A program made the translations under genes and the position numbers. The notes under the pieces are model-generated. The model did no database searches. It saw nothing but the letters and a program-made list of their open reading frames with translations, and was not told where the DNA came from. This document shows positions 975 through 9,284 of a stretch of 64,000 nucleotides of DNA, one piece after another (within the stretch, counting starts at the first letter, position 1; every line of letters starts with the position of its first letter). This DNA is from a virus: the IMG/VR virus record IMGVR_UViG_3300028048_000061, positions 1-64,000 of that record. One strand, given 5' to 3'.

Positions 975-2072
975 ATGTTTTTATTTTTGAACAAAAAGCA
1001 ACAAAAAGTTTTTAATCTTTTTGTTGAGTATATTAACTGTATTGTATTTTTTAATGTTGAGTTTAACAAAAATAAGTTTGTAAATAAAAATACTTTATTT
1101 TATACAAATTTAAATTTTTACAAAACTTTTTTTGAACATTATTCATTATTTAAATTTTTGATTAAATGTTTTAAGTTTTTTGATAATAAATCAAATAAAC
1201 AAAAAGTATTAACTTTAATTAATAGAATACTTAAAGATAACAAACAATATATTGTTTTAAATAATTATAATGATATATTGTTATTTATTGCTTTTTGTAA
1301 TGAATACAAAAAGGGATTTATAAGTTATCAAAAAGATTTACTTAGTTTGAATAAACATAACTATATTAAAAAATTTAAAAATATTAATGTTTATATGATT
1401 AATCTTAAATTAAATAAACATGATTTAAATAATAGATATTTTTTAATAGAATATAGTTTATATCAAGAATATTTACAAACTATAAATTGTACTTATTTTG
1501 ATTTAAAGCTCAAAAAAAGTTTTAAGATATTCAAACTTTATTTATTAAGTAAATATAGTTATATGTTTATAAATCTTAGTACAAATAAAAAGGGATTTAC
1601 AAAAAGACAATATTACAATAAAAATTTAAATAAAAGTACAAAAAACATTTATTTAAGTGAGTTAATATTTTTTATTCAATATTATAATGATTTAATTAAA
1701 ATTAATGAATACAATTATTATATTGTAAATAATAATAGTATTTTTAATCATGTGAGAGATTATTTTACTTATTACAAACATGACAGTATAAGTATAATTG
1801 AATACTTTAAATTGTACAATTATAATATTGTTAATGATATATCAAAAAATATAAACTTAGATAATACTATTCATTATAAAGTTATTTTAAATAATATCAA
1901 TAAAGATATAAAATTTAATAATAAATTAAAAGAATATATTACCTTTTTATTACAAAAAGATATTATTACTTTTAATGATATTCAATTATTAATTAAATAT
2001 CAAAAAGGTATATTTAATAATAATTATTATAATAAAGTTTTTGAAAAATACTTTACAAAAAGAATAAAATAA
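975..2072 (+). CDS. Hypothetical 365-aa protein of extreme AT-biased composition (possible origin- or terminus-binding protein)
   Basis: Stop-free for 366 codons in roughly 85% AT DNA (estimate), which is very unlikely by chance. RBS gaggtt precedes ATG 975; TATA-like elements near 790-830. No recognisable motif. Confidence 0.7.
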   Translation: MFLFLNKKQQKVFNLFVEYINCIVFFNVEFNKNKFVNKNTLFYTNLNFYKTFFEHYSLFKFLIKCFKFFDNKSNKQKVLTLINRILKDNKQYIVLNNYNDILLFIAFCNEYKKGFISYQKDLLSLNKHNYIKKFKNINVYMINLKLNKHDLNNRYFLIEYSLYQEYLQTINCTYFDLKLKKSFKIFKLYLLSKYSYMFINLSTNKKGFTKRQYYNKNLNKSTKNIYLSELIFFIQYYNDLIKINEYNYYIVNNNSIFNHVRDYFTYYKHDSISIIEYFKLYNYNIVNDISKNINLDNTIHYKVILNNINKDIKFNNKLKEYITFLLQKDIITFNDIQLLIKYQKGIFNNNYYNKVFEKYFTKRIK

Positions 2073-2597: not shown

Positions 2598-3776
2598 TCA
2601 ATAATCGAAATCATCATTCAGTTTTTCCAGCTCTTCCATATCAAACAGGCCGAAATCGAACTCCGGCCTCATGTCATGCCTATTGTTCTCTTTCAGCACA
2701 TCATCCTTAATCCTATAATCGCTCTCCTGAAACACTATTCGTGAAAAGCGTTCAATGTCAAACGCATCCAGCCAATGCATGTTCTTCAAGGCGGTATATG
2801 TATACCCCAAGTTTCCAACATGCCTGCCTTCCAAAGTGACAAATCCACGCTTATTTCTGCTTCTGCGACTTAAGGAATATCCCGTCTTCGTGTAAGACCC
2901 TACAAACGCAGAATCCTTATTCAATACCAACCAGTAATTCTCATACAGGTTCTCTCCCAAGCTTCTAATCAAAACGCCAGAGCTCTCATCTGCTCCAAGC
3001 AATCTCCAAGCTTCTTCAATATCACGCATATTGTTGCATACAATCATCGGAGCCTCATCGTAATCCGTTTGAACCAAAAAACTAAATGCTAATCTTTGTT
3101 TTAAATGATTCCGTGTCTGCCAAAAGTCATTCACACGGATGCAATCGATAATCTCTCCATCGCAAGTGATGAAATCCCCTTCGCCAAAATTGGTGACCTC
3201 CAGTCTTTCAACACGATACGGTTCCTTATTCAGCGAAACAATTACGGGGAACAGCAATCCATCAAGAACCCTATGGCGTCTCGGCAACGGAATGTTATTG
3301 TAACGGGTCGGAAAGCAAATCAACTCATACTGAGGCTTCCATTTCCGTTTTTGACGTTTCACAAAGCGATTGCCAATGAAAAAATCCTCACGAACAATTT
3401 GGTGCAATAGCCTAACGATATCGTGCTGATACGTCCACACTTCATAAAAGCTTCTCAAGTTGAAGTGAAAAATAGTGAAGAGAAGCTTGACATTCTTTGC
3501 GAACAAGTCCTCATTTACGGAGATTTGGATGCCTTCCTCATCTACAATGCGAATACCGAATCTCTTATCTTGATTTTCCGTGTATCCGTGAAACAACAAT
3601 AGCCAGCAGTTTATGTCAAGCAGGACATCTCTGCTAGCCTTGCCCGGCATATAGTCCTTGTCATTGCTAATATGCTTTGTAATGGCCAAGAACTTGCTCC
3701 ACGGGGCATCAGGCCTATTCACGGAATTCAAGTCGTTATTGGTAAGCGTATTCAAGACATAAGGGTCATCCCTCAT
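2598..3776 (-). CDS. ATP-dependent DNA ligase-like protein with degenerate catalytic motifs
   Basis: Ligase-like motifs in the correct order: RVLDG (motif I, no Lys), FITCDGEII (III), DCIRVND..LKQRL (IIIa), SGVLIRSLGENLY (IV), WLVLNK (V), DSAFVGSY (start of the OB domain). RBS aggtga. Confidence 0.55.
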   Translation of the reverse strand: MRDDPYVLNTLTNNDLNSVNRPDAPWSKFLAITKHISNDKDYMPGKASRDVLLDINCWLLLFHGYTENQDKRFGIRIVDEEGIQISVNEDLFAKNVKLLFTIFHFNLRSFYEVWTYQHDIVRLLHQIVREDFFIGNRFVKRQKRKWKPQYELICFPTRYNNIPLPRRHRVLDGLLFPVIVSLNKEPYRVERLEVTNFGEGDFITCDGEIIDCIRVNDFWQTRNHLKQRLAFSFLVQTDYDEAPMIVCNNMRDIEEAWRLLGADESSGVLIRSLGENLYENYWLVLNKDSAFVGSYTKTGYSLSRRSRNKRGFVTLEGRHVGNLGYTYTALKNMHWLDAFDIERFSRIVFQESDYRIKDDVLKENNRHDMRPEFDFGLFDMEELEKLNDDFDY

Positions 3777-4762
3777 GATTCATCACCTTGACATAGGATA
3801 CTTTCCCGAGCTTTTCTCTCATCAACAACCCTCCATTCCAAGCCGGCATTGACAACCTTTTTTTTTAGTTCCATCAGGCTTGTTGAAGAAAAGCTTCTTG
3901 ACTGGCCATTCTCGTTGCACCTATAGCGCCAAAAGAAGCCCTGCTTATAGGAATTGTTATTGCACTTGTCCACCCTATAAAAACCGGTCTTGTTTCGTCT
4001 CTTCATCTTATAATCCCTTATCTCTTTCTGAATAGATTCCATGTCTTGTCCAGCATTGATGTTGTCAGCTAAATCCACTAAAAATGCCTTGTTTGTGCTG
4101 CTGCAAACCAGTCTGGAATCAAACATCAAGCAATAGTTTCTCTTTTCACGACGAAAACCTCTATGCACAACCCTTGCATATTCCTTATATTGATTATGTT
4201 CCTTTCCTCGTCTTATATGATGCGTTTGGATAATATTCTTTGCCTCATTCATCTCAATTTCATCTCGGTTCAACAAAAAAGCTAGTGCGTCCAACATTTT
4301 CCTATCAACACTCATACCAATATTAATTCCTTGATGAACCAGCAGATATCTCTGTTGACCTTCTGACAAGCCAGCTTTGACAACACGAGCAAAATCCTTG
4401 TAGTTCGGGTTATTCCGACCCTTGTATAAGTTGCTCCTATAAGCCTTAAACTCTTCAGAATGTTTAAGTCCGACAGCGCCATCTCCACCTCTTGTGAAAT
4501 TTAATGTTGGTTTATGTTTGGAGATAAAACATATCTCCATTTGGTTTAGATGATTGTCAGAGCAATCGTCAATTTCCCACAACACCTCATATCGATAGCG
4601 AGACGGATTGCCTTGTATAACACGATTGATTTGTTGTTCATTATATCTACAAGGTTGCTTATGAGCCTTTCTTCTTTTTTCCTCATCTATATGAGAATCC
4701 TTCCCTATATAAACAACATCGTCGTTTTTATTATCAATATAGCAATAAATTCCTTTTGTCAT
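3773..4762 (-). CDS. GIY-YIG homing endonuclease
   Basis: MTKGIYCYID..VVYIGKDS..RRKAH..E..LNFTRGGDG; C-terminal TGFYRV..KQGFFWRY module shared with paralogs. Likely start is ATG 4762 after aagtga. Confidence 0.9.
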   Translation of the reverse strand: MTKGIYCYIDNKNDDVVYIGKDSHIDEEKRRKAHKQPCRYNEQQINRVIQGNPSRYRYEVLWEIDDCSDNHLNQMEICFISKHKPTLNFTRGGDGAVGLKHSEEFKAYRSNLYKGRNNPNYKDFARVVKAGLSEGQQRYLLVHQGINIGMSVDRKMLDALAFLLNRDEIEMNEAKNIIQTHHIRRGKEHNQYKEYARVVHRGFRREKRNYCLMFDSRLVCSSTNKAFLVDLADNINAGQDMESIQKEIRDYKMKRRNKTGFYRVDKCNNNSYKQGFFWRYRCNENGQSRSFSSTSLMELKKKVVNAGLEWRVVDERKARESILCQGDES

Positions 4763-4767
4763 ATCTA

Positions 4768-4944
4768 TCACTTGATTAATGCTTGCAGCAGCAAGATAGC
4801 ATCTCTTATGCTATCGTTTGACATATCGCATTGTTTTAGTGCTGTTGCTATCTTAGGGATTGCGTCTTTCTGATGATTGGTTTGCCCCTTCAACAAGCAA
4901 TACCTGATGCAATCCATTCTTTTCTCGTCCTGATTTAGAGACAT
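4768..4944 (-). CDS. Hypothetical protein, 58 aa
   Basis: Hand-translated MSLNQDEKRMDCIRYCLLKG...; RBS ggaggt; fills the gap between two co-oriented genes. Confidence 0.65.
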   Translation of the reverse strand: MSLNQDEKRMDCIRYCLLKGQTNHQKDAIPKIATALKQCDMSNDSIRDAILLLQALIK

Positions 4945-4956
4945 CTCATACCTCCT

Positions 4957-5376
4957 CTATATGTTGTTTAAAAAATTATCAACATCCTCGTCTGATATGT
5001 AATCTAGCGGCACCTTGGCATTATCGGAATAGTCTTCATCAGGAGCGAATCCGTCAATATACTCCGCTAAGGAATTATCATTGTTGCCGCGGCTTTTATT
5101 ATATCCGTTTGGAAAAAACGTATTGTAAAGGTCTATATAATGAGCCTCAACAATATCTAAATCTTCGTCAGGGACGTCCTCTGCTAAAATACCCACCTCA
5201 AAAAAGTCAGAACCATGCTTTCTAATTGCACGAGACAAGCAAGTGTTGTATGCTCGACGACCCTTCAAGTAAGCTGCTTCAATATGCTGTCGAAACCTCT
5301 TTTCAACGGGCTGGACAGATTGCCCAACATATCTCTTATCGTTCTTAATGTTTCTAATCATATAAATGGTACCCAT
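4957..5376 (-). CDS. GIY-YIG nuclease-domain protein with acidic tail
   Basis: GTIYMIRN..KRYVGQS..KRFRQH..VEAHYI..NGYN; RBS aggagg. Confidence 0.85.
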   Translation of the reverse strand: MGTIYMIRNIKNDKRYVGQSVQPVEKRFRQHIEAAYLKGRRAYNTCLSRAIRKHGSDFFEVGILAEDVPDEDLDIVEAHYIDLYNTFFPNGYNKSRGNNDNSLAEYIDGFAPDEDYSDNAKVPLDYISDEDVDNFLNNI

Positions 5377-5390
5377 AAAAAAATCCTCCT

Positions 5391-5429
5391 AAAAAAAAAG
5401 AGAAACCGATACAAAAGCATCGGTTTCTC
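5391..5429 (-). terminator. Hairpin plus T9 at the end of the tRNA operon
   Basis: 11-bp stem gagaaaccgat/atcggtttctc (5400-5429) followed on the minus strand by T9. Confidence 0.7.
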
Positions 5430-5458
5430 AGTACAAGGTCTTATTATGAAGATTTTAA

Positions 5459-5531
5459 AGCTCTGAGAGAGACTTGAACTCTCAAATCTAAATTACGAGT
5501 TTAGCGTTTTGCCAATTAAAACTATCAGAGC
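5459..5531 (-). tRNA. tRNA-Thr(CGT)
   Basis: Cloverleaf GCTCTGA..CTAAA-CTCGTAA-TTTAG..GAGAG-TTCAAGT-CTCTC-TCAGAGC, discriminator T. Confidence 0.93.
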
Positions 5532-5539
5532 TTTAAAAA

Positions 5540-5676
5540 AGCCACATGAGGGATTTGAACCCCCGACCTCCGAGTGTCTTGTGTCAGTAAGGGTAAATAT
5601 GGGGTGGGTATAGGGGGGATTGGCCATTATACTGACATTACAAGCTCGGCGCACTAGCCAGCTGTGCTAATGTGGC
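5540..5676 (-). tRNA. tRNA-Thr(TGT) with a 63-nt intron at position 37/38 (intron 5576-5638)
   Basis: CCGAG-CTTGTA|intron|A-CTCGG; strict BHB (bulge TAA, helix CTTG/CAAG, bulge ACA) closed by an 8-bp TGTCAGTA/TACTGACA stem; discriminator T. Confidence 0.95.
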
Positions 5677-5762
5677 ATATCAAGGCGCCACGATGGACGC
5701 CTTTGATTTAAAGGAAATGATTTATTCTGGAAAGAAAGAGTTAAAAGAATCTATCTTCCAAA

Positions 5763-5826
5763 TCAAGATGATTGGAATCGAACCAACACCATACGAAGTA
5801 TGAGCTACCACTAAAACTACATCTTG
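5763..5826 (-). ncRNA. tRNA-like RNA (64 nt) with a collapsed anticodon arm
   Basis: Perfect acceptor CAAGATG/CATCTTG, T-arm GTTGG-TTCGATT-CCAAT, D-loop with GG; the anticodon region CATAC-TTC-GTATG lacks a canonical 7-nt U33 loop; variable region about 2 nt. Confidence 0.7.
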
Positions 5827-5965
5827 AACAAGTCGAAATCGACTTGTGCAACATTGTTCACAACAATGTTAATTGATAAATATTCTTATCAAATAATTCG
5901 CTTAATTAATTCTCTAGTTAATTTCTGATTGTTTTTTCAACTAACTTTCTCTCTTCGCGAGAGAA

Positions 5966-6046
5966 CGCCGTGTACAGGATTCGAACCTGCGACTCTTACG
6001 AGACCGCCTTAGCAGGGCGGCGCAATCACCTCTCTGCCAACACGGC
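5966..6046 (-). tRNA. tRNA-Ser(GCT)
   Basis: GCCGTGT..CCGCC-CTGCTAA-GGCGG, long variable arm CTC-GTAA-GAG, TTCGAAT, discriminator G. Confidence 0.95.
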
Positions 6047-6116
6047 AAACGGGGAGGAACACCCCCCTGTAGGGGGGGGTTCGGAAAGTGATACCATGAA
6101 CAAAACTATGTTCAAA

Positions 6117-6191
6117 TAGCGACCCTTGGATTTGAACCAAGCCTCTCGGGGTTATGAGCCCCACGGGATTACCAGACTACCCCAAGTCGCT
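6117..6191 (-). tRNA. Initiator tRNA-Met(CAT)
   Basis: A1-U72 pair, anticodon stem TGGGG-CTCATAA-CCCCG with consecutive G-C pairs, discriminator A: archaeal initiator hallmarks. Confidence 0.92.
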
Positions 6192-6240
6192 AAAAAAATA
6201 AGAGGAATAAATCCTCTTGAAAAAATCACACATAAAAAAT

Positions 6241-6453
6241 TTACATTAATTTTTTAGCTAGTTTTACGTCTTCAGCCATTACGGTTTTTCTGCCAACATG
6301 TTTGGAAATGTTGAGACAGTCTTTCATAAGGCCTCTTGCGTAATCTTCTACATCTTCTAAGATTAAGTCTCTTGCTTCAGCGGATAATCTGTCGCCGCCA
6401 ATTTTTTTGAACATCCTATTAATAGGAGCTTTTGGTAAATCAGTTTTAGTCAT
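6241..6453 (-). CDS. Archaeal histone (HMf family), 70 aa
   Basis: LPKAPINRMFKKIGGDRLS...SKHVGRKTVMAEDVKLA aligns with HMfA/B LPIAPIGRIIK.AGA.RVS...AKHAGRKTIKAEDI.LA; RBS gaggtg before ATG 6453. Confidence 0.95.
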   Translation of the reverse strand: MTKTDLPKAPINRMFKKIGGDRLSAEARDLILEDVEDYARGLMKDCLNISKHVGRKTVMAEDVKLAKKLM

Positions 6454-6576
6454 TATATACACCTCGAATTTATTTTTTTAATCAAACTTTATTGTAGGAC
6501 CCCCTATTAAAATAGGGGGCAAATTAAAAAGGTTGGTAAAACATGTTTTTAAAAACATCGATTATTTCTAATCGAA

Positions 6577-6635
6577 AGCCTTGGATAGGAATCGAACCTA
6601 TCACAACACACCATCTTGTCATATCCAATCAAGGC
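6577..6635 (-). ncRNA. D-armless tRNA-like RNA (59 nt), possibly Thr(GGT)-derived
   Basis: Acceptor GCCTTGA/CCAAGGC (6 pairs + 1 mismatch), T-arm ATAGG-TTCGATT-CCTAT, central hairpin ACAA..TTGT, no D stem, discriminator T. Confidence 0.65.
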
Positions 6636-6681
6636 AAAACCCCCTTATGAAAAGGGGGAAAGGTAATATGAACATTTTAAG

Positions 6682-6763
6682 CGGTCGAGGCAGGATTTGA
6701 ACCTGCGACCCCAGAGGGACTGGTTCTCAAGACCAGCGCAATACCAAACTATGCCACTCGACC
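6682..6763 (-). tRNA. tRNA-Ser(TGA)
   Basis: GGTCGAG..CTGGT-CTTGAGA-ACCAG, long variable arm, TTCAAAT, discriminator G. Confidence 0.95.
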
Positions 6764-6827
6764 AAAAACGCGCAATCACCGAAATGATTGCACGAAAGAG
6801 TCAAAACCATACTTTATTTTACCAGTG

Positions 6828-6898
6828 AGTCTGAGGCAGGGTTTAAACCTGCAATACAAGGGTTGCAGCCAAGCGCATTACCTCTTTGCTACTCAGAC
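6828..6898 (-). tRNA. tRNA-Cys(GCA), partly degenerate
   Basis: GTCTGAG/CTCAGAC acceptor, loop CTGCAAC, discriminator T; two T-T mismatches in the anticodon stem and T-loop TTTAAAC. Confidence 0.75.
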
Positions 6899-6997
6899 AA
6901 GTGAGGGACGGGGGCGAGCCCCCGTATATGTGTCGTGTTAAATATGCGTCGTTTTTGACTTGTGTGCTTTCACACAATATAATATTTGACTTCATAG

Positions 6998-7013
6998 TAT
7001 ATAAATGTTTCGT
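6998..7013 (-). promoter_or_regulatory. BRE-TATA promoter for the leftward tRNA/histone operon
   Basis: Minus strand reads cgaaaca-tttatata, about 100 nt upstream of tRNA-Cys. Confidence 0.6.
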
Positions 7014-7159: not shown

Positions 7160-7735
7160 ATTACGTGTGGAATATATTGTATTGAAAACAATATTAATAA
7201 AAAAAAATATATTGGTCAAAGCGTCAATATTGAGAAGCGCTTATATCAGCATTGTAATTCATTAAAAAATAACAATCACTCGAATAATCATTTGCAAGGA
7301 GCTTGGAATAAATACGGCGAGAATAATTTTGATATGTTTATTCTAAAATCGTGTAAGCAGAAGTATTTAAATCGTCTCGAGAAAATGTATATTCGTGTAT
7401 ATGATTCCTTTCATAATGGGTATAACCTAACGAAAGGTGGAGACGGGTTTCCTTTGGACGAAGAGTCACGTTATCATCGTGCTTTGGCTAATAGTTTAGC
7501 AACAAATCGTATAGGTGTGATGAATGTATCTAAATTTACTGATGCCAAATATAGACAAGGATTTCGTTATCGGTATCAAAATGCGATAACTGGACAACAT
7601 ATGTATTCATACGACCTTTTAAAGTTAAAAAAGAAAGTAGAAGATAATAATTATAAATGGCTAATAATAAACGAGGACTTATATCAACAATCCTTATTAG
7701 AAAACGAACAATTGAGGTTATTGTATGACAGATAA
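7160..7735 (+). CDS. GIY-YIG homing endonuclease; probable ATT start
   Basis: The frame extends upstream of the track call to (M)TCGIYCIENNINKKKYIGQSVNIEKR; no ATG/GTG/TTG after the in-frame stop at 7124; RBS gagggtg 5 nt before ATT 7160. Confidence 0.85.
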   Translation: MTCGIYCIENNINKKKYIGQSVNIEKRLYQHCNSLKNNNHSNNHLQGAWNKYGENNFDMFILKSCKQKYLNRLEKMYIRVYDSFHNGYNLTKGGDGFPLDEESRYHRALANSLATNRIGVMNVSKFTDAKYRQGFRYRYQNAITGQHMYSYDLLKLKKKVEDNNYKWLIINEDLYQQSLLENEQLRLLYDR

Positions 7736-9284
7736 ATCTCATTTAAAAAAGATTTTACAAAGAGCAAAAAATGATAAGGTTTTCTTTGCAAAGAATTTCT
7801 TGAGAGACCCAGACAATGAGCCATATGAATTAGAGCCTCATCAAGCAGCTTTTTTGAACGACCCACACCCATTTAAAATTTTATTATGTTCAAGGCGTTC
7901 GGGAAAGTCCTTGTTGTTTCAGATGGATATTTTACATAAATTATTTTTCTTGAAAAATCAAAATATTGGAGCATTATTTCCAACTCTTGCTCAAGCTCGA
8001 GAATTTGGAAAAACTTTTGACGATTTAGTATACAGGTCTCCTTTAATAAGCTCCTCATTTGCTGTTGATAACAAATTAGATAAAATGTTGATTAATAGGA
8101 ATCGTTTTAAGATAGCGAGCGCAGGAACTAAATCTGGACAATCAGAGGATTCTGCACAAGTTGGTGCAGGTTTTTCATCATTGCTTCTTGATGAAACACA
8201 ATCACTTGATGAAGAGTCTTTATCAACTATCATTCCAACAATCTTAGGTCAAAAAAGCAACACTACGACTTTAATGTTAGCAGGAACACCACGTACAAAG
8301 CGTGATTTCTTTTATAAAAACATACAAAATTCATTTCAAATAACCGATACAAGCAAAAGTCCCACACCAAAACCATTAAAAAAGGATGGTATTTTTAGTT
8401 TACATCGTTTTCAGGTTACAGAAGTAGATGAGACAGGAAAGATTTTATATACACGTTCACCAAAGCGATTAAGCATCGCGGATTTAGAATCTGTAAGAAG
8501 TGTAATTGGCACAGAAAAGTTTAGGCGAGAGTTTTGTCTTGAATTTCTTGATACAACATCACTTCCATTTTACGATGAGCTTGTTCAAGCTCAAGGATAT
8601 TTGCCAAAACCAGACGTTTTTCAATCTAAACAAATTTGTGTTGGAGGAATTGACTTTGGTAAAGTTCGAAATAATTCTGTTTTATGTATTGCAGAATTTA
8701 ATCCAAAAATTCATAAATGGGAGGCCAAATATTTTAAGTCATGGAATCTTGGAACAAAATATCAAGATATCATACATTATGTTAATAATATTTTGCCAAT
8801 ACGATTTCCTAAGCTATTAATGCTTGGGGTTGACGCAACTGGTGTTGGAAAGTCTATTACCGAAGGATTAAATTATCAAAATCGTTTTGAAATAAAGGAT
8901 ATTTTGTTTTCACAACCGATGAAAGTATCTCTTGTGGAAAATTCTGTAATGAATTTAGAGACAGATTATGTTCGTTTTTATAAACATCCAATATTAGATA
9001 AAGAAATGGCATCATATACAAGATTAATAAATGACAATGGAAGGGTTTTGTTCGAAAAAGGAGAATCCGATGACTTTGTAGATGCATTTAATATGTGTAA
9101 TAATGTTATTACTGACGTAACAAATAAAGGATTATTGTATAAAACAAACATAGCTGTTACTGGATTGGGGGGCAGCATTGTTGATATGAATAAAAACTTT
9201 AGAGGCAGTAATCCAACTTATAATACTTATAATTTGCGACAAGCAAGAGAAAATAAACAAGGAATATCTTCATTAAGGAGGTAG
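7725..9284 (+). CDS. terL: Terminase large subunit
   Basis: Walker A-like CSRRSGKS, Walker B LLLDE, coupling AGTP, RNase H-like nuclease GIDFG..S, GVDATGVG and DDFVDA. Confidence 0.95.
   Translation: MTDKSHLKKILQRAKNDKVFFAKNFLRDPDNEPYELEPHQAAFLNDPHPFKILLCSRRSGKSLLFQMDILHKLFFLKNQNIGALFPTLAQAREFGKTFDDLVYRSPLISSSFAVDNKLDKMLINRNRFKIASAGTKSGQSEDSAQVGAGFSSLLLDETQSLDEESLSTIIPTILGQKSNTTTLMLAGTPRTKRDFFYKNIQNSFQITDTSKSPTPKPLKKDGIFSLHRFQVTEVDETGKILYTRSPKRLSIADLESVRSVIGTEKFRREFCLEFLDTTSLPFYDELVQAQGYLPKPDVFQSKQICVGGIDFGKVRNNSVLCIAEFNPKIHKWEAKYFKSWNLGTKYQDIIHYVNNILPIRFPKLLMLGVDATGVGKSITEGLNYQNRFEIKDILFSQPMKVSLVENSVMNLETDYVRFYKHPILDKEMASYTRLINDNGRVLFEKGESDDFVDAFNMCNNVITDVTNKGLLYKTNIAVTGLGGSIVDMNKNFRGSNPTYNTYNLRQARENKQGISSLRR

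Follow-up and report, generated by a model that had tools for sequence, protein, structure and literature searches.

RNase P, tRNase Z, and the CCA-adding enzyme recognise the half of a tRNA that consists of the acceptor stem and the T-arm (hereafter the top half). The tRNA punctuation model of mitochondria reportedly goes back to Ojala et al. in 1981. In the archaeon Haloferax volcanii, a tRNA-like structure, the t-element, lies upstream of the 5S rRNA, according to those passages of PMC4326828 that cite Holzle et al. (2008, 2012). These t-elements are cut in vivo by RNase P and tRNase Z, and an RNA placed between two of them, an engineered CRISPR RNA (crRNA), is released in vivo (PMC4326828). 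In plant mitochondria, tRNAs and t-elements with the T-arm motif GGTTCRANYCC coincide with mRNA ends (Forner et al. 2007, PMC1920247). Here, we analyse an island of tRNAs, tRNA look-alikes, and a histone gene in the IMG/VR virus record IMGVR_UViG_3300028048_000061 (154,713 bp, 32% G+C), of which the first 64 kb form the stretch under study (the window). The island occupies positions 5391-7011 of the minus strand and its order from the promoter is tRNA-Cys, tRNA-Ser(TGA), a first look-alike (TL1), the histone gene, initiator tRNA-Met (iMet), tRNA-Ser(GCT), a second look-alike (TL2), tRNA-Thr(TGT), tRNA-Thr(CGT), and a terminator. TL1 (59 nt, 6577-6635) and TL2 (64 nt, 5763-5826) both show the fold that characterises t-elements, i.e., an acceptor-type stem stacked on a T-arm of the GGTTCRANYCC type. 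We hold with moderate confidence that TL1, TL2, and the look-alikes of related viruses are putative viral t-elements and that the island is a punctuated operon, because the top half is conserved in them and because t-elements are cut in Haloferax and mark mRNA ends in plant mitochondria.

The homologues of the large terminase encoded beside the island form a graded series, which we used to compare the island between viruses. We examined loci at 91, 88, 84, 83, 82, 79, 77, 71, and 69% terminase identity. They are part of a longer list of terminase matches, and the counts of lineages and loci are thus lower bounds: the island is present, in part or whole, in at least eight or so distinct lineages (69-91% identity, at least 14 loci). 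Stem pairs were tallied in register from the ends of the elements, because the MAFFT alignment put the 5' acceptor strand out of place in the TL1 homologue of locus L008.

TL1 is made of an acceptor stem with 6 of its 7 pairs formed, a complete T-stem (5/5), the T-loop TTCGATT, and a 27-nt middle without D or anticodon arm. It has homologues in L011, L030, L031, and L008/L009 (the L008 copy being 75 nt long) and is 85-100% identical within the window's clade. Four of the 12 stem pairs vary, three of them on both sides, and the only unpaired position is the single acceptor mismatch, A7.C66, which the homologues conserve. Two T-stem pairs step from A-T to G-T to G-C between the window, L030, L031, and L008, and acceptor pair 2-71 passes from C-G to T-A across the same four lineages. 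The T-loop is invariant in this series, and the middle diverges by substitutions and indels. These data bear on the idea that the look-alikes are unusual decoding tRNAs, with TL1 as a tRNA-Thr(GGU) devoid of D-arm and TL2 as a shortened tRNA. TL1 can indeed be drawn with the loop ATGGTGT (anticodon GGT), and its G1-C72, C2-G71, and U73 are as in the two Thr tRNAs of the island. However, the anticodon stem would be closed by a G.G mismatch (with a further mismatch in L030), TL1 is missed by ARAGORN and by the Rfam tRNA model (no match at E up to 10), and the loop of TL2 has 3-5 nt when 7 nt are required. The loop of TL1 and its candidate GGT anticodon have disappeared in L031 and L008, which removes its reading as a D-armless tRNA-Thr. 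We therefore give the decoding hypothesis almost no credence.

TL2 retains a complete acceptor stem (7/7) and T-stem (5/5), the GG of the D-loop, the pair C1-G72, and the discriminator A73. A short hairpin with a loop of 3-5 nt replaces its anticodon arm, with a deletion of around 9 nt. Its score with the Rfam tRNA model is 29.5 bits, for a gathering score of 29, compared with 51-61 bits for the neighbouring tRNAs. In four relatives (L002, L005, L008, and L014), the slot of TL2 is occupied by a tRNA-Tyr, with which it shares C1-G72, A73, and, in the alignment, the 3' trailer. What had been described initially as a second tRNA-like RNA is thus present, but is more exactly a truncated derivative of tRNA-Tyr. 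Eight of the 12 pairs vary within the family gathering TL2 and these tRNA-Tyr, seven of them on both sides, and none of the 60 cells of this tally is unpaired. The conversion of Tyr into TL2 changed 24 of 42 core positions and replaced pairs 2, 3, and 4 of the acceptor stem, while C1-G72 and A73 stayed in place.

Similar conversions are found in the relatives. An iMet-like element lies beside the histone gene in the L005 clade (L005 2723-2797, L014 4150-4224, and L035 2854-2928). Compared with a working iMet, its core has changed at 14 of 44 positions and its T-arm at 2 of 17, and the 15 acceptor positions are all unchanged. Five of its seven anticodon-loop positions differ (GGTATGT instead of CTCATAA), two anticodon-stem pairs are broken, and one D-stem pair changed in a compensatory way. 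A Cys-like element in L006 has 17 of 41 core positions different from tRNA-Cys and an acceptor stem identical at all 15 positions, and the changes in its T-stem are compensated. When the three conversions are pooled, there are about seven double changes and one wobble change in stems, against one break. These comparisons indicate that TL1 and TL2 descend from tRNA genes whose top half was kept by selection as the decoding core was lost. Judging from the sequences of the relatives, tRNA genes appear to have been kept as top-half modules after losing decoding at least three separate times in this one virus clade.

Could the look-alikes simply be tRNA pseudogenes, decaying neutrally, with ends that are intact only because they are young? 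Their presence differs between lineages, relatives have a real tRNA-Tyr at the slot of TL2, and the histone-proximal element described below was wholly lost in the window's clade. True fragments also occur, namely the 3' half of a tRNA-Cys in L005/L014 and a 3' part resembling tRNA-Ser(GCT) in L001. Yet, substitutions concentrate in the cores, the changes in stems are nearly all compensatory or pass through G-T, the T-loops of all look-alikes stay within TTCRANY, and the compensation in TL1 is stepwise over four lineages. Neutral decay, which the initial annotation had named as the observation that would count against its proposal, is unlikely: the comparison of synteny and covariation in related viruses revealed the opposite pattern. 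The proposal that the truncated elements retain precisely the acceptor stem and the T-arm is borne out by compensatory changes in the relatives and by the drift of the cores.

The relatives encode other look-alikes, up to four per island. The histone-proximal family (TLh) includes elements of 51-167 nt in L008, L002, L032, L001, L006, and the L005 clade. Eight of its 12 stem pairs vary, seven of them on both sides, and only 1 of 72 cells is unpaired. The elements of the X2 family (76-77 nt) have an odd core, and 4 of their 12 pairs are doubly changed. The L005 clade has bare minihelices of 37 and 45 nt, and a separate 78-nt unit is found in relatives. We rejected the possibility that the long TLh of L002 and L032 are ordinary tRNAs with introns, since their constrained folds give a continuous long arm with no recognisable bulge-helix-bulge (BHB) or anticodon loop. 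A strict scan of the islands found 110 units with acceptor stem and T-arm, compared with 13.6 in shuffled sequences. A permissive scan of the whole genome for minihelices gave 54 matches, within the range of the shuffles (22-60), and was set aside for the strict one. The Rfam tRNA model, used at E up to 1, misses the look-alikes of the relatives, with the sole exception of the X2 of L002. Since most of these elements escape both tRNA finders and Rfam, islands of viral tRNAs probably hold more functional RNA than is annotated. We also observed a third anticodon-less look-alike in the genome of the virus (G000), beyond the window (71679-71776, minus strand). It is 98 nt long, its acceptor stem and T-stem are fully paired, and three further tRNAs are found nearby.

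The protein-coding gene of the island (6241-6453, minus strand) encodes a single histone fold of 70 aa of the HMf type (PF00808, CBFD_NFYB_HMF, E = 2.9e-13; PF00125, E = 2.7e-10). It starts at the ATG at 6453, 7 nt past a GAGGTG Shine-Dalgarno (SD) motif, and not at the GTG at 6462. The predicted 5' untranslated region (UTR; 6454-6576) contains a hairpin starting 3 nt past the discriminator of TL1, a palindrome, a GC hairpin, and the SD motif. The predicted 3' UTR (6192-6240) contains a hairpin (6200-6218) that ends 8 nt before iMet and is followed by T7. The initiator tRNA-Met(CAT) itself (6117-6191; Rfam 51.5 bits) has the pair A1-U72 and a GGGG/CCCC anticodon stem. Histone orthologues are encoded in every syntenic relative. 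All lineages have a tRNA-shaped unit whose end lies 25-208 nt ahead of the ATG, and in all loci extending beyond the stop codon an iMet-shaped unit begins 32-50 nt past it. The upstream unit of most relatives is a TLh, which ends 25-66 nt before the ATG. In 9 of 11 loci, a hairpin begins 0-3 nt past the upstream unit; the window's clade, L008, L001, and L006 have another one that ends 5-14 nt ahead of iMet. The bracketing of the histone gene, as initially put forward, is thus constant in the relatives, but TL1 does not directly adjoin the gene in the window, as it ends 123 nt upstream of the ATG. Together with the hairpins at both ends, this arrangement is the pattern expected of a message cut by tRNase Z on its 5' side and by RNase P on its 3' side, a prediction drawn from sequence comparison.

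Such processing would require that the histone gene and its neighbours be transcribed together. The island starts with an archaeal promoter that we read from the sequence (6998-7011, minus strand), where a transcription factor B recognition element (BRE), GAAACA, precedes the TATA box TTTATATA. The usual spacing of such promoters places the predicted transcription start near 6975 and gives a predicted 5' leader (6899-6975) with two hairpins (minimum free energy of -21.4 kcal/mol, z = -3.0). At the other end, the terminator (5391-5429) consists of a 13-bp hairpin (5400-5429; z = -6.4) and T9 (5391-5399). The head is GAAACA followed by TTTATATA, or a variant with one letter changed in the BRE, in 11 of the 11 loci whose whole island was examined, all of which end with a hairpin and a run of T9-T10. 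No second TATA-like box has a conserved position in these 11 loci, which rules out a conserved internal promoter. In the L005 clade, the upstream unit and the ATG are 25 nt apart, most of which are SD motif, and the stop codon is not followed by a T-run. This leaves no room for a separate promoter, and the histone gene of this clade would have to be transcribed through its neighbours. Internal runs of T5-T7 are also nearly absent in this clade. Taken together, these results support, without proving, the view that the island is a single transcription unit. The single promoter and terminator proposed initially gain from the conservation of the box and of the T9 in the 11 loci; the internal T5-T7 runs of the window, which could be partial terminators, speak against them.

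The other tRNAs of the island were called by ARAGORN and by the Rfam tRNA model (RF00005), and all are on the minus strand. They are tRNA-Cys(GCA) at 6828-6898 (54 bits), tRNA-Ser(TGA) at 6682-6763 (61 bits), tRNA-Ser(GCT) at 5966-6046 (58.7 bits), tRNA-Thr(TGT) at 5540-5676, and tRNA-Thr(CGT) at 5459-5531 (58.9 bits). With these calls and our reading of the sequence, the parts listed in the initial annotation (six tRNAs, the histone gene, two tRNA-like elements, a promoter, and a terminator) were all recovered in their places. So were the hairpins it had reported in the spacers: all 9 spacers of at least 46 nt fold stably (z from -2.1 to -6.4), and the hairpin usually ends 1-10 nt ahead of the next tRNA. 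The spacer between iMet and tRNA-Ser(GCT) (6047-6116, minus strand) has a GC hairpin that keeps its place with a different sequence in L008 and L002, which suggests that spacer hairpins are selected structures. They could serve as end protection, folding insulators, or partial terminators. The tRNA-Thr(TGT) has a 63-nt intron (5576-5638) with a canonical BHB at 37/38, where two 3-nt bulges flank a 4-bp helix (CCGAG-CTTG-taa-TGTCAG...CTGACA-CAAG-aca-CTCGG). The motif is present in the window and nine relatives, and its outer helix covaries. In the relatives, the intron is 62-110 nt long, with covarying BHB helices. Its C-rich core is identical in L008, in spite of a terminase identity of 71%, and may have a function of its own.

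These features suggest the following scenario. The BRE/TATA promoter would drive a single polycistronic precursor, extending to the terminal hairpin and T9, that would hold six working tRNAs, the histone mRNA, and the two anticodon-less look-alikes. RNase P and tRNase Z of the host would then cut each tRNA-shaped unit. A tRNase Z cut after the discriminator of TL1, at 6577, and an RNase P cut where iMet begins, at 6191, would free a histone mRNA about 385 nt long, and the terminal hairpins of this mRNA may protect its ends from exonucleases.

Several observations weigh against this scenario or limit its evidence. Internal T5-T7 runs occur in the window at 6768, 6555, 6530, 6239, 6225, 6198, and 5540. 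Archaeal transcription terminates at oligo-T, so that some segments of the array may be transcribed separately or in attenuated form. The window's clade lacks TLh and has TL1 as the upstream neighbour of the histone gene. The 5' UTR is 123-208 nt long in this clade, with several hairpins, which leaves room for a weak promoter of the histone gene that we failed to recognise. Our scanner detects only elements that are still paired, which biases the sample of look-alikes. The homology within families is partly positional (TLh of L005, TL2 versus Tyr), with partial alignments, and exchange of cassettes driven by homing endonucleases could mimic compensation in place. Finally, TL2 and other look-alikes have no adjoining mRNA, and their retention cannot be accounted for by excision of the histone message.

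The latter point leads to a possible, if doubtful, alternative, in which the look-alikes, once released by the enzymes of tRNA processing, are small RNAs with a job of their own and the excision of the mRNA is a by-product. They might be sponges for toxins or for enzymes that bind the acceptor end or the elbow, chargeable acceptors, or regulators. TL2 is placed between two tRNAs and adjoins no mRNA, and yet it is 97-100% identical over its full length within the window's clade, where real tRNAs are 94-100% identical and the spacer upstream of TL2 only 76-78%. It retains C1-G72 and A73 in spite of the replacement of the three adjacent pairs, and these are the main acceptor-end marks for the archaeal tyrosyl-tRNA synthetase (TyrRS). 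The number of look-alikes per island, which include bare minihelices, and the third look-alike of the same genome also fit such a role. However, no partner protein or target was identified, and the variation of lengths (37-167 nt), cores, and positions between lineages is easier to reconcile with a generic structural signal than with a specific ligand. The decoy function suggested in the initial annotation is a poor fit where anticodon nucleases are concerned, because elements without anticodon loops cannot distract them. One may speculate further that the released look-alikes gain CCA and accumulate as anticodon-less acceptor RNAs. TL2 would then be bound, perhaps tyrosylated, by the host TyrRS through C1-G72 and A73, and TL1 and the minihelices would soak up host factors or defence toxins at the acceptor end or the elbow. 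This would make of these viruses a clade of methanogen viruses with top-half decoys beside their own tRNAs, an extension that we consider improbable.

The distribution of the island opens yet another explanation, i.e., that the look-alikes are by-products of recombination without any RNA function: pieces of tRNA akin to attachment sites, or scars or targets of GIY-YIG endonucleases. The island lies between a GIY-YIG gene and the terminase gene in every locus that reaches far enough upstream of the latter. In the window, GIY-YIG-type and apparently free-standing homing-endonuclease genes are found on both sides (4957-5376 and 3773-4771 on the minus strand, 7292-7735 on the plus strand), and GIY-YIG or NUMOD3 genes occupy matching places in the flanks of all relatives. 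The content of the island is mosaic, and the flanking endonucleases may account for this cassette-like pattern. At 53% terminase identity (L033 and L034), the island is missing beside the terminase gene, which the GIY-YIG gene directly adjoins. Hence, it was either acquired by the clade with at least 69% terminase identity or is located elsewhere in the genomes of L033 and L034. However, attachment sites retain one half of a tRNA and not both strands of the acceptor stem, and a DNA target would conserve its sequence instead of changing by substitutions that preserve pairs. We consider this explanation very improbable and keep that of viral t-elements.

We searched for the island and its neighbouring terminase in other datasets. 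A blastn search of GenBank phages with the island gave no match, and a search of IMG/VR for the terminase with close patterns found no relatives. An alignment-based search of the same database gave only relatives at around 50% identity and remote matches. JGI metagenomes added only two further members of the clade. Among contigs of GTDB genomes there were three terminase matches, at around 50% identity, binned with bacteria; we read them as misbinned virus contigs and not as evidence on the host. The gene for the large terminase (7725-9284, PF03237) and those for the portal and the capsid adjoin the island, and we class the virus as an archaeal tailed virus. Its archaeal-type features (the BHB intron at 37/38, the A1-U72 iMet, the BRE/TATA promoter, and the HMf-type histone) and the origin of its relatives in rumen and gut metagenomes indicate that the putative host is probably a gut methanogen. 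Further upstream in the window, iteron-like arrays of direct repeats (1-290 and 2140-2300) flank a stretch with 14.5% G+C that contains an AT-rich open reading frame (about 975-2070, plus strand). The opposite end of the record (154.4-154.7 kb) has a tandem repeat with a unit of around 23 nt. These repeats may correspond to a replication origin or to the genome termini.

How does the island compare with known systems? Canonical tRNAs (RF00005) share with the look-alikes the acceptor stem, the T-arm, the T-loop consensus, and the discriminator, as well as the GG of the D-loop in the case of TL2. Unlike them, the look-alikes have no 7-nt anticodon loop, and TL1 has no D-arm. The tRNA region of phage T4 includes eight tRNAs, the stable RNAs C and D (species 1 and 2), and the GIY-YIG endonuclease SegB. 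Like the island, it is a viral cluster of tRNAs with small stable RNAs that do not decode and a GIY-YIG endonuclease, and it is polycistronic and processed by the host RNase P. In contrast, T4 is a bacterial virus, and its stable RNAs are not plain mimics of the top half; none of the protein-coding messages of T4 is known to be punctuated by tRNA-like elements. In the mascRNA at the 3' end of MALAT1 and the tRNA-like/microRNA transcripts of murine gammaherpesvirus 68, a tRNA-like fold lacking a functional anticodon also brings in RNase P or RNase Z, which make the end of an adjacent RNA. Both cases come from eukaryotic nuclei or herpesviruses, with an origin and a context unrelated to those of the island. 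The t-elements of plant mitochondria resemble those of the island in that the enzymes RNase Z and RNase P define the ends and stem-loops lie at the ends of mRNAs. They differ in that they belong to eukaryotic organelles with a protein-only RNase P and in that their ends were mapped, whereas those of the island are predicted.

The Haloferax t-elements are also archaeal and are non-canonical tRNA-like folds within a longer transcript that define the ends of a neighbouring RNA, as predicted here for the transcript of the island and its cuts. Yet, they are cellular and serve an rRNA or an engineered crRNA. The elements of the island are viral, lie within an array of tRNAs, flank a histone gene, and can be traced to Tyr, iMet, and Cys; their cleavage is predicted. 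We found no description of tRNA-like punctuation in archaeal viruses, or of this virus clade, in the literature searched, so the novelty claimed initially holds for the archaeal-virus case but not for t-elements as such, already documented in H. volcanii (PMC4326828). The kinds of elements involved (t-elements, tRNA punctuation, and non-decoding stable RNAs such as those of the T4 region) are known. What is new is the setting in a clade of archaeal viruses, the bracketing of a histone mRNA, and the fact that identifiable tRNAs repeatedly gave rise to look-alikes whose top half is under selection. The latter suggests that dead tRNA genes may persist as top-half modules instead of only decaying. 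The island may also provide a handle on the expression of viral histones, since the gene appears to share its unit with an initiator tRNA and is located immediately upstream of the genes for packaging and for the capsid. If excision by RNase P and tRNase Z is true, this would be the first tRNA-punctuated maturation of an mRNA found in an archaeal virus, according to the literature we searched, and would parallel in a natural setting the t-element cassettes engineered in Haloferax.

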